NCBI GenBank assembly: GCA_046758445.1 | Contig: JBHIAE010000043.1 | Coordinates: 1-23,695 of the forward strand | Length of the DNA: 23,695 nucleotides | Source of the DNA: Candidatus Thorarchaeota archaeon | GTDB taxonomy: Archaea; Asgardarchaeota; Thorarchaeia; Thorarchaeales; Thorarchaeaceae | Reading direction: 5' to 3' | Shown here: piece by piece, positions 2,982 to 5,804 of the stretch | Position numbering within the stretch: the first letter of the stretch is position 1 | How the letters are laid out: each line of letters begins with the position of its first letter | Notes under the pieces: generated by a model | The model's input: the letters and a program-made list of their open reading frames with translations, nothing else | What the model was told of the DNA's origin: nothing | The model's database searches: none | Position numbers and translations under genes: made by a program

Positions 2982-4310
2982 ATGCAAGAACTACTCCTTA
3001 GTCCGGACATAGTGATCAGGTTCCTGATTGGATTCGCAGTAGGGGCTTTAATAGGCCTAGAGCGCCAGAAGCGAATGGTGGAGGAGTCAACCGCAGGTGT
3101 GAGGTCTTTTGGACTCTTGAGTCTTTTCGGAACAATCACCGCCTATACTTACACTGTCACAGACAACATCGTGATAATGGTATACGCGATAGCAGTTTCC
3201 ACAATCCTGATCGGAGTTCAAATTACCTACAAGATGTTCAGGACCATGAGGAAGGGGATGACAACCTCCATTGTGTTGGCGATAGCATTCACACTAGGCA
3301 TCCTCGTGGGTTTCGATGCACCGCCCCCTCCTGGACAGCTCGTCGGTCCTCTTCAGGTCCTGGCTATGACGGTTGCATTCTTGGTGTTTCTAGTCCTAGG
3401 CTTCAAGCAGGAGTTTCAAGCACTGGTGGCGGTCATAAGCCGAGATGAGATGATTAGCGCAGCTGAGCTTGGCGTCCTGATTCTCTTCCTTTGGCCTCTC
3501 ATTCCTGATTCAGTACAGATATGGACCATCATTCTTCCTGCACAACAAATCTACCTCTTGGTGATCTTACTTCTGTCTATCAGTTTCGTAAACTACATCC
3601 TCGTCAAGAAGTTTGGAAGCAGAGGGCCCTTCTTCTTCGGGTTCTTTGGAGGGTTCGCCAACAGTGAAGCTACAGTTTCTAGTCTAACGGACTTCCATGT
3701 CAAGACTGGCAGGAAATATCCAGGCAGAATAGCTCTATCTGCAATTCTCGCAAATGTCGCAATGATCCTGAGAAATGGAGTCATAGTGGTGATTCTCGAC
3801 CCGACTCTCCAGATCTTCAAGTACTACGTTATTCCTCTTGCAATCCTTGTACTAGGTGCCACGTACAGAATGATCAGAGAAAGTAGACGAACTGAAACCG
3901 TGGACGAGGGACAAATCGAAGCGGCCTTGGGATCTCCTTTCGAGTTCGGCGCAGCAATCAGATTCGTGATAGTCTTCACCGGCGTTTCACTTCTTTCACT
4001 CTTGTTGCAAGAAGTGTACAGTGATTCCGGTGTCATTGTGGCCGCCCTAATTGGAGGTTTTGCTTCAGCAGGCGCTATTGTGGCAACAGTTGGAATCGGT
4101 TTTGCCGGTGCCACGATTGGTCTAACTACAGCAGTATTTGCAGTGATCATCGCTACGACAACGTCTGTTTTGAACAAGGTGGTGTATGTATACACTTCCG
4201 ACCGTGAAGCCGGTTTACTCAGAAACGTGGCCAAGGACTCACTGATAATGGCGGCTGGGGTCGTTGTCTTCATCATTCTGCTTGCAACGGGATTCATTCC
4301 GATTGTGTGA
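2982..4310 (+). CDS. MgtC/SapB family membrane protein with DUF4010
   Basis: GALIGLERQ, AGVRSFGLLSLFG, GMTTS, SISFVNYILVK, GFFGGFANSEAT and SPFEFGAAIRF motifs; many transmembrane helices. Confidence 0.85.
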   Translation: MQELLLSPDIVIRFLIGFAVGALIGLERQKRMVEESTAGVRSFGLLSLFGTITAYTYTVTDNIVIMVYAIAVSTILIGVQITYKMFRTMRKGMTTSIVLAIAFTLGILVGFDAPPPPGQLVGPLQVLAMTVAFLVFLVLGFKQEFQALVAVISRDEMISAAELGVLILFLWPLIPDSVQIWTIILPAQQIYLLVILLLSISFVNYILVKKFGSRGPFFFGFFGGFANSEATVSSLTDFHVKTGRKYPGRIALSAILANVAMILRNGVIVVILDPTLQIFKYYVIPLAILVLGATYRMIRESRRTETVDEGQIEAALGSPFEFGAAIRFVIVFTGVSLLSLLLQEVYSDSGVIVAALIGGFASAGAIVATVGIGFAGATIGLTTAVFAVIIATTTSVLNKVVYVYTSDREAGLLRNVAKDSLIMAAGVVVFIILLATGFIPIV

Positions 4311-4378
4311 GCCCTGAAGAAGGAGTTGGCTCCCATACAAGCATAAGACTTAAAGTCATTCTCAATGGACTCGGATTC

Positions 4379-4493
4379 GGTGACAACGGTGAATGTTGGT
4401 GGCCTAGTTCATCTGCAACGATGACCCAGTTGGTGCGTTCTCCGCCACCTCATCCCGTGACCGTTGCCCTGACATCTTTTGGAGGACTTCTAA
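4379..4493 (+). promoter_or_regulatory. Structured 5' leader of hisS (candidate cis-regulatory RNA)
   Basis: The TATA-like CTTAAA at 4349-4354 predicts a TSS near 4378-4380. Nested helices CAACGGT/ACCGTTG, GGTGGC/GCCACC and TCATC/GATGA; SD GGAGG at 4481-4485. Confidence 0.55.
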
Positions 4494-5804
4494 ATGCCAG
4501 AGTTGAGGACAGTCCGAGGTATGAGAGACCTGATGGGTCCAGAGATGAGAGTTAAGGAGTACTTGGAGGCAACTGCTGCTGAAGTCTTCCGTCATTTCGG
4601 CTATGAGCCGCTAGACTCACCCGTCATGGAGCTGTGGGAAACTCTGTCAGCCAAAGGCGGAGAAGAGGTGGAGGCTGAAACTTTCAAGTTCAAAGACAAA
4701 GGTAATCGAGAGGTGGGTCTGCGGTTTGATTTGACTGTGCCTCTCGCCAGAATCGCAGCATCAAATCCTCATCTCTCAAAGCCGTTCAAGCGATATGCCC
4801 TTGGCAAGGCCTGGAGGTACGACCGTCCTCAAGCCGGCAGGTATAGAGAGTTTGCCCAAGCAGATGTTGACATCATTGGATCAAGCAGTCCTGCGGCGGA
4901 TGCTGAGGTGGTTCTGGTCGCTATCGAGTATCTAAGACGTGTCCTTGGAAGCGACTACAACATTCGAATCAACAACCGAAAAGTTCTGAGAGGAATGACA
5001 GAGAAGGCAGGAATTGAGGACAATCTGGCCTTTGAGTGTTTCAGAGCAATTGACAAGCTTGACAAGATTGGACAGGCCGGGGTCAAGGAGGAGCTGAAGA
5101 CTCGGGGCATTGACGAGAAAAAGAGTCAGTTCCTCCTCGATGCCATTCAACTGAGAGGTGCCGGCCTTGATGTCCTCAAGAAGTTTGGCGAACTCTTGGA
5201 GGGCTCCAACATCGGGATCGAAGGCGTCGAAGAGCTACGGATGATGGCTGAAATCTTCAAGGAAAGCGCTGCTGAGGACTTGATCGAGTTCGACATGTCG
5301 CTTGCACGAGGGCTCGATTACTACACCGGCCCTGTCTTTGAGGTTGACTATCTCGGCGTGCCAAAGGTGGGGTCGTTGGGAGGTGGAGGCCGGTATGACC
5401 GACTGATAGAACGGTTCGGTGGGCCACCCACACCTGCCACGGGAATCTCATTAGGCATCGATAGGCTCATTGATGTCCTTGTGGCCCGCGGAGTTGGTGA
5501 TCAGCTAGAGAGTGGATTAGACGTGTACGTTGCTCCGATAAAGAAGGCCATGGTGAAGTATGCGATGAAGATTCAGAGCGAGCTTGTTAGAGCTGGAATT
5601 TCTTCGTCTGCGGATGTCATGGATAGACCTCTCAAGAAGCTCTTGGAACAGGCCGACGCAAAGAAGGCGAGGTATGTTATCATTATAGGTCAGCGTGATC
5701 TGGATAAAGGCGAGGTCAGTCTGAGAAACATGTCCACGAAGGAAACCGTGCAGGTGAAGATGGGCGACATTGTTGACGAGGTGAGCCGGCAGCTCAAGCG
5801 CTAG
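4494..5804 (+). CDS. hisS: Histidine--tRNA ligase
   Basis: RGMRD, LRFDLTVPLAR, RYDRPQAGRYREFAQADVDIIG, LARGLDYYTG and GGGGRYD motifs, plus a C-terminal anticodon-binding domain. Confidence 0.97.
   Translation: MPELRTVRGMRDLMGPEMRVKEYLEATAAEVFRHFGYEPLDSPVMELWETLSAKGGEEVEAETFKFKDKGNREVGLRFDLTVPLARIAASNPHLSKPFKRYALGKAWRYDRPQAGRYREFAQADVDIIGSSSPAADAEVVLVAIEYLRRVLGSDYNIRINNRKVLRGMTEKAGIEDNLAFECFRAIDKLDKIGQAGVKEELKTRGIDEKKSQFLLDAIQLRGAGLDVLKKFGELLEGSNIGIEGVEELRMMAEIFKESAAEDLIEFDMSLARGLDYYTGPVFEVDYLGVPKVGSLGGGGRYDRLIERFGGPPTPATGISLGIDRLIDVLVARGVGDQLESGLDVYVAPIKKAMVKYAMKIQSELVRAGISSSADVMDRPLKKLLEQADAKKARYVIIIGQRDLDKGEVSLRNMSTKETVQVKMGDIVDEVSRQLKR

Follow-up and report, generated by a model that had tools for sequence, protein, structure and literature searches.

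Amino-acid sensing by ribosome stalling on a leader peptide is a textbook bacterial mechanism, and with pheST of E. coli the principle is used for an aminoacyl-tRNA synthetase (aaRS) gene. In attenuators of this kind (pheST/pheM and the his, trp, thr and leu leaders) a short open reading frame (ORF) led by a Shine-Dalgarno (SD) sequence carries codons for the relevant amino acid, and the footprint of the stalled ribosome overlaps one strand of alternative helices. T-box riboswitches, which precede aaRS genes, are modular leaders with a single codon to specify the amino acid, the translational attenuation of ermC and cat uses stalling on a tiny leader ORF that remodels the mRNA without a classical terminator, and the thrS operator of E. 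coli is a gene-specific aaRS leader close to the ribosome-binding site. In eukaryotes, short upstream ORFs (uORFs), among them those of GCN4/ATF4 and the fungal arginine attenuator peptide, tune a main ORF by amino-acid supply. Archaea couple transcription and translation, and the Asgard archaea stand closer to eukaryotes than any other known organisms. We know of no ribosome-mediated attenuation established in Archaea, and a search of the literature for leader peptides of archaeal aaRS genes gave none.

Here we analyse the leader of hisS in a Candidatus Thorarchaeota archaeon. The window, by which we mean the whole stretch of DNA that was analysed, comprises 23,695 nucleotides of contig JBHIAE010000043.1, and hisS lies at 4494..5804 on its plus strand. 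The product is a histidine--tRNA ligase of 436 aa with PF13393 and an HGTP anticodon-binding domain, and it scores 386 bits against TIGR00442 (cut-off 287). Its ATG at 4494 is immediately preceded by an in-frame TAA, and the gene 5' of hisS, which encodes an MgtC/DUF4010 membrane protein, ends at 4310. An 82-aa ORF at 4307-4555 was rejected; it has no Pfam family and is broken by single-nucleotide indels in relatives. We think it likely that the hisS leader acts as a ribosome-stalling sensor of His-tRNA supply and so controls hisS. With the bacterial attenuators it shares the SD-led short ORF with a codon for the relevant amino acid and would share, as proposed here, the overlap between stalled ribosome and helix strand; with the T-box leaders it shares the modular layout and the single naming codon, on a scaffold that is reused (his/pro; phe/ile), and with thrS the gene-specific position close to the ribosome-binding site. 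With ermC and cat it would share the remodelling of mRNA by a ribosome stalled on a tiny ORF, and with the eukaryotic cases the tuning of a main ORF from a short one. Its features, all on the plus strand, are as follows.

4345..4355, plus strand: promoter, BRE-like AAGAC and TATA-like TTAAAG (consensus A.C..AAGACTTAAAG in 69 relatives)
4379..4384, plus strand: GGUGAC, predicted mRNA 5' end, candidate SD of the uORF and 5' strand of helix P1 (GGUG invariant in 70 leaders)
4389..4424, plus strand: candidate uORF, GTG AAT GTT GGT GGC CTA GTT CAT CTG CAA CGA TGA (MNVGGLVHLQR*), recognised by its comparative pattern
4396..4403, plus strand: UUGGUGGC, internal SD-like GGUGG (4398-4402) and 5' strand of helix P2 (GGUG invariant; pairs with CCRCC downstream)
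4407..4412, plus strand: GUU CAU, the invariant Val codon and, next to it, the His codon; proposed P-site/A-site pair (GUUCA invariant in 70 leaders)
4438..4443, plus strand: UUCUCC, pyrimidine element (UUCUNY), with a similar UUCUNUG after the uORF in the proS, pheS and IleRS leaders
4442..4449, plus strand: CCGCCACC, 3' strand of P2 (CCRCC kept; flank covaries with the bases 5' of GGUGG)
4457..4468, plus strand: GUGACC and GUUGCC, alternative 3' partners in P1 (GUNRCC kept in 70 leaders)
4481..4486, plus strand: GGAGGA, SD of hisS (GGAGG kept 6-8 nt before the start in relatives)

The hisS upstream regions of 70 species genomes from the same Thorarchaeota family, together with one from the sister family, were used for comparison. 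All 70 family leaders and that of the sister family contain the block GGUGAC - about 5 nt - RUG A.. - GNU GGU GGN NNN GUU CAU, with the exact core in 62 leaders and single-base variants in 9, and the remainder of the leader drifts among relatives. A covariance model of the leaders gives one match per genome, always directly before hisS, and no second match below E = 1 in the organism's own genome; when 151 Asgard genomes were searched, it matched 25 of 26 inside the family and 1 of 124 elsewhere (E = 0.08). The sister-family leader (L021) has, 72 nt upstream of hisS, a reduced form, ATG GAC CAA GGT GAG TTT GTT CAT TAA, in which the stop directly follows the His codon and the upstream GGUGAC is absent. 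A cmscan search of 3800-5000 against Rfam at E up to 10 gave no match in the leader. Both of these comparisons had been proposed in the initial annotation, which had seen in the leader an undescribed archaeal cis-regulatory RNA working by tRNA mimicry or ligand sensing. The first half of that suggestion holds: this is an undescribed, conserved, cis-acting and hisS-specific leader in one Asgard lineage, kept in the 70 family species and reduced in the sister family. The second half does not, as set out below. As a separate observation, the hisS frames of two relatives, G014 (L008) and G053, contain one in-frame TAG each, which might stem from faulty sequencing, from pseudogene formation or from recoding.

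The promoter lies at a fixed distance from this block. TTAAA, embedded in the conserved AAGACTTAAAG, begins exactly 29 nt 5' of GGTGAC in 57 of 69 relatives, a number that rises to 66 of 69 if deviations of 1-2 nt are allowed, and this places the predicted transcription start near 4379. This supports a hisS mRNA 5' end about 115 nt before the ATG, where the initial annotation had put it. Between 4000 and 4800, a stretch that includes the hisS leader, no terminator-like site was found.

Comparison among relatives suggests that the block belongs to a short reading frame with its own ribosome-binding site. A start codon preceded by an SD, as in leader-peptide attenuation of the general kind, is present in 68 of 70 leaders (GTG 33, ATG 24, TTG 11; CTG never), and the two others have ACG at the start position and an in-frame GTG at -30. 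GGUGA is complementary to UCACC in the 16S 3' end of the family, GGAUCACCUCCU in relatives, and stands 4, 5, 6 or 8 nt before the start (5 nt in 53 of 68), so that the length of this gap changes in single-nucleotide steps. Between start and His codon, in contrast, 18, 21 and 24 nt are the sole lengths, and the frame is thus kept by 3-nt indels. Four leaders that have lost the usual start (L016, L050, L066, L075) have instead gained an in-frame ATG or TTG at -18. A stop follows 0-6 codons after the His codon in all leaders, and the residues in between differ by lineage (HLQR*, HPNE*, HLFL*, HLLLE*, HRSGER*, H*). An initiation at the GUG of GGUGAC itself, as on a leaderless mRNA, was rejected as the universal start; that codon is in frame in only 57 of 70.

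The cognate codon is the most constant part of this frame. All 71 leader peptides contain a single His codon; in the 70 family leaders it is CAU in 66 and CAC, a synonymous change and the sole variant, in 4. The internal GGUGR keeps a constant distance of 4 nt to the GUU and 7 nt to the CAU that follow it, and the former spacing is about that between GGUGA and the start codon. By this geometry, a ribosome whose 16S tail sits on GGUGR would hold GUU in its P site and CAU in its A site. Constraint on the peptide is weak (M-x-x-G-G/E/D-x-V-H). GGU and GUU show no variation in their third positions, and in one genus the Gly codon GGU is replaced by CGU for Arg, a change for which P2 compensates; conservation therefore operates largely at the RNA rather than the peptide level. 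The invariant nucleotides of the leader would match a short translated uORF, a reading that fits them better than a tRNA mimic.

We used the tRNA-His of the same genome to examine the mimicry idea directly. ARAGORN found no tRNA in the window and no tRNA-His in the genome, and relaxed settings returned noise; the gene was missed or mistyped because it has an intron in the T-arm region. It was found by its anticodon-loop pattern on contig 6, at about 89373-89473 on the minus strand, with G-1 and CCA encoded, and reads G-1 GCCCGUG ... CUGUGGA ... CACGGGC-C-CCA. Its acceptor stem, GGCCCGUG/CACGGGCC, has only the first two G-C pairs in common with GGUGGC/GCCACC of the leader. The leader helix is moreover internal, so that it cannot present a G-1 5' end, and no CCA-like tail is conserved after it. 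The GGUGR module also occurs in the proS leader, which means that it is not histidine-specific, and the hisS leader has no match to the tRNA family of Rfam. Acceptor mimicry was rejected on these grounds, and the resemblance to E. coli tRNA-His over 6 bp, which the initial annotation had itself suspected might be chance, is judged coincidental now that its comparison with the genome's own tRNA-His has been made. A metabolite riboswitch was rejected as well, the element being present in one copy per genome and before hisS only, not before several pathway genes. In two leaders from another Asgard family (L026 and L027) an intron-bearing tRNA-His gene with the CUGUGGA loop lies directly upstream of hisS, at a distance of about 70-220 nt.

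As a single sequence, the hisS leader is no more stable than its shuffles: the minimum free energy is -32.3 kcal/mol vs -31.2 +/- 3.2 for dinucleotide shuffles (z = -0.33), and a longer stretch with flanks gives z = +1.69. Across the 70 leaders two nested helices recur. In P1, GGUGAC(A) pairs with (U)GUNRCC (in the window 4379-4384 with 4457-4462 or 4463-4468); in P2, which lies inside it, (N4)GGUGG(N) pairs with (N)CCRCC(N4). On re-reading of the sequence, all the motifs from which the initial annotation had drawn its structure are in the window where it had placed them, namely CAACGGT (4384-4390) with ACCGTTG (4460-4466), GGTGGC (4398-4403) with GCCACC (4444-4449), TTCTCC (4438-4443) and the hairpin TCATC-TGCAAC-GATGA (4409-4424). 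Their fate among relatives is divided. The inner helix is kept as GGUGG/CCRCC and the outer one is kept too, but as GGUGAC(A)/(U)GUNRCC; the CAACGGT/ACCGTTG register occurs in the closest relatives only, and the hairpin is genus-specific. Pairing of TTCTCC with the hisS SD, proposed as an anti-SD, fared no better than chance across the family, SD-region pairing being -8.46 kcal/mol vs -8.31 kcal/mol with shuffled leaders.

Support for the two helices comes from the pattern of their changes. Variation in the 3' strand of P1 is mainly U/C or A/G, which preserves G-U or Watson-Crick pairs. For the pairing test the alignment was fitted to the structure with a second covariance model, and 81.6% of its cells were paired vs 11-51% with slid partners. 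After removal of four antisense rows and the sister-family row, among sequences that are mutually related, 10 of 19 pairs change on both sides vs 6.3 +/- 1.1 in shuffles (1 of 1000), and the pair types number 36 vs 29.2 (0 of 1000). Compensatory changes are found at the base of P2 (AGUU/AACU, AGAU/AUCU, GGCU/AGCC; in one genus GGUCGUGG/CCAGACC) and in P1 (GGUGUCUG/CAGAUGAC, GGUGAAGC/GUUUCGCU). Per-sequence complementarity is moderately above shuffles, and self vs cross-species duplex energies give a weak signal. The covariation check suggested by the initial annotation was partly favourable: both-sided changes exceed those in shuffles, but the helix flanks are not significant when the register is fixed by the core alone, without reference to the flanks. 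Covariation thus lends moderate support to nested P1 and P2 helices, within an alignment fitted to that structure.

Other structural readings of the leader were considered and set aside. A local GGUGG/UCAUC hairpin, predicted by RNAalifold from a plain MAFFT alignment, shows no covariation; its two strands coincide with the Gly and His codons, and it would form at the expense of P2. A K-turn around UGA in the internal loop was rejected, the opposite strand being without GA, and a C/D-box sRNA (AUGAUGA...CUGA) was rejected as its boxes are not conserved.

A related design stands before other synthetase genes. A scan of the organism's own genome for a TATA-like box, an SD, a short ORF and a long ORF in succession returned eight loci, and three of these are aaRS genes: hisS, proS and pheS-alpha. 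In 30 family genomes the proS leader consists of a CTTTAAATA promoter, about 25 nt, a GGUGAA SD, 5-6 nt and a uORF reading ATG CTA GGT GAN NNN GTT CCG ... stop, that is, the hisS module with a proline codon. Variants are CCA once, three GTG starts, and CTT for GTT in the own genome, where the uORF encodes MLGEHLPIR (L120:182-211, contig 45; relatives L122-L151). A conserved downstream CCUAGC is complementary to GCUAGG at the start of this uORF. The pheS-alpha leader has a GTTAAAAAGG promoter, a AGGUGAAG SD and an SD-led uORF in which CAA UUU is invariant across the family (own genome MSHQFTSSL, L121:183-212, contig 34; relatives L152-L181).

A fourth uORF, ATG GAT TGC CAA ATT CAC stop, is identical in 17 genomes and precedes an IleRS-like gene of 1126 aa (own genome contig 46, leader upstream of 13132, minus strand; L183-L200). 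Of 61 family genomes, only 18 gave a high-identity copy of this gene; its distribution is thus patchy, and it may be a second or transferred IleRS. In each of the four leaders the conserved codon that sets it apart from the others specifies the amino acid of the downstream synthetase (CAU, His; CCG, Pro; UUU, Phe; AUU, Ile), and the chance of four such matches is of the order of 1 in thousands. The pyrimidine element UUCUNUG is also common to all four, about 8-25 nt after the uORF stop (hisS 4438-4444); before pheS and the IleRS gene, the purine-rich spacer that surrounds the start of the uORF provides a complement to it. Nine other aaRS-type genes of the own genome have no SD-led uORF of such kind. 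Among short ORFs of that genome, the exact GGTGR-N4-GTT goes with an SD and a downstream gene at hisS only, and the proS and pheS leaders have no match in Rfam.

Comparison of sequences brings out a design common to these four synthetase genes, and whether it amounts to a family-wide system appears to us evenly poised. On that proposal, Thorarchaeaceae would regulate at least four aaRS genes (His, Pro, Phe, Ile) by modular uORFs that combine a fixed P-site codon (GUU or CAA) with one cognate A-site codon, the his/pro type having in addition an internal SD-like anchor to keep this codon in the A site, and these would constitute the first archaeal ribosome-stalling leader-peptide sensor.

How such a leader might act on hisS can be modelled from the arrangement of its parts. 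We infer translation of the uORF, a ribosome stall within it and an effect of that stall on hisS expression. The mRNA would begin near 4379, at the SD-like GGUGA of the uORF with the start codon five nt later, and a ribosome could load before the downstream complements have been transcribed. Pairing of the internal GGUGG with the 16S tail would then set GUU and CAU in the P and A sites as described above. With charged tRNA-His plentiful, the ribosome would pass and terminate a few codons later, after which GGUGAC and GUUGGUGG could pair with their complements (P2 near 4442-4449, P1 near 4457-4468) and close the uORF. With charged tRNA-His scarce, it would wait on CAU with its footprint over the 5' strand of P2. 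This would leave the downstream strands free, so that the leader would fold otherwise around the ribosome-binding site of hisS, which follows P1 after 15-20 nt, and the use of that site would change.

Parts of this model are better defined than others. The 5' strand of P2 lies 7-15 nt before CAU, which is inside the normal footprint of a ribosome. One fold (P1/P2) is supported, and no conserved alternative to it was found in the hisS leaders. As to the direction of the response, we favour, by analogy with bacterial systems, that a stall gives more HisRS. Masking of the stalled footprint in a crude model modestly lowers the predicted accessibility of the hisS SD, from 0.555 to 0.423 (69 leaders: 39 down, 9 up); this would mean that a stall gives less HisRS, opposite to the bacterial precedent. 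Against the sensor reading count the one sensing codon, where classical bacterial leaders have runs, the lack of a terminator-like site and of SD-sequestering pairing above shuffles, either of which could have served as output, the ACG at the start position of two leaders, and a conservation that is largely of RNA and not of peptide.

The same single codon would suit a uORF that is translated without sensing histidine, with a constitutive role, such as loading ribosomes, protecting the mRNA or damping hisS translation by a fixed amount, and with the His codon incidental. The lack of a defined output structure is in keeping with this, as is the synonymous-site conservation of GGU and GUU, which reflects RNA-level constraints unrelated to sensing. 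We nonetheless regard it as unlikely, since the cognate codon would then have arisen in four aaRS leaders by a coincidence of the rarity given above. It is also quite unlikely, in our view, that the leader is a T-box-like RNA whose CAU specifier pairs with the tRNA-His anticodon off the ribosome and whose fold switches on tRNA binding. UUCAU is complementary to positions 34-38 (GUGGA) in the anticodon loop CUGUGGA of the own tRNA-His, the codon adjoins conserved helices, and a change from CAU to CAC is compatible with anticodon pairing. A T-box would, however, not need the start codon, spaced SD, frame-preserving indels and nearby stop that are all conserved here, and neither a T-box match in Rfam (RF00230; cmscan of 3800-5000, E up to 10) nor a conserved complement to the tRNA-His 3' end GCCCCA was found. 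In place of the UGGN bulge, no conserved unpaired UGGG is available for the GGGC-C-CCA end of tRNA-His, and UGGUGG lies inside P2 and the uORF.

The model of the initial annotation, in which HisRS binds an operator that mimics tRNA-His in the style of E. coli thrS, or a metabolite is sensed, draws on the nested helices and on a single-copy, gene-specific leader of the type usual in autoregulation; UGGUG...CAU also loosely resembles U8-G12 and C23-U25 in the D arm of the own tRNA-His. We hold this to be very unlikely given an own acceptor stem that differs, the lack of a tRNA or other Rfam match, a fold that is not unusually stable and the recurrence of GGUGR-N4-GUU in the proS leader. Least probable of all, and hardly to be expected, is that the conserved block serves at the DNA level as the binding site of a transcription factor, next to the TATA box on its downstream side, with GUGR repeats about 10 bp apart. 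GGTGAC, GTGA and GGTGG are indeed spaced by about one helical turn at the predicted transcription start, but the downstream complements vary mainly by changes that preserve G-U or Watson-Crick pairs, the genome contains the site only once, and the conservation of frame, start and stop would be left unexplained.

Read as a ribosome-stalling sensor, the hisS leader departs from each of the described systems in specific ways and is a member of neither the bacterial attenuator nor the T-box family. Unlike the bacterial attenuators it is archaeal and has a single cognate codon rather than a run; its helices are nested (1:4, 2:3) rather than serial and come without a terminator hairpin and U-run, and an internal SD-like anchor stands 4 nt before the P-site codon. 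The Thorarchaeota leaders do not match the His_leader or Phe_leader models of Rfam, and the hisS leader has neither the run of His codons, the model match nor the intrinsic terminator of the His operon leader (RF00514). Unlike in a T-box, its codon belongs to a reading frame predicted to be translated, where a ribosome would read it, and the leader is without Stem I, the T-box sequence and an antiterminator. It has no convincing mimic of the cognate tRNA and has a coding signature that thrS lacks. Both ORFs, that of the leader and hisS, have their own SD, so that no scanning of the eukaryotic kind is implied, and the peptide is weakly constrained. SD sequestration, in comparison with ermC and cat, is not above shuffles. 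In mycobacteria, leaderless short ORFs with poly-Cys runs respond to Cys (bioRxiv 10.1101/834739). The remodelling of mRNA by a stalled ribosome would be common to them and to the hisS leader. They use poly-Cys and ermC/cat sense drugs, whereas the sensor in the Thorarchaeota leaders would be a single cognate codon before aaRS genes.

If the proposed mechanism is correct, it would provide a translated counterpart of the bacterial T-box 'specifier' idea and a testable system, in which a swap of the codon should swap specificity. Such leaders can be found through cognate codons in conserved mini-ORFs and not through RNA structure alone. Regulatory uORFs would join the features worth comparing between Asgard archaea and eukaryotes, and modular uORFs in which only the cognate codon is changed would show how an Asgard lineage matches synthetase supply to tRNA charging.
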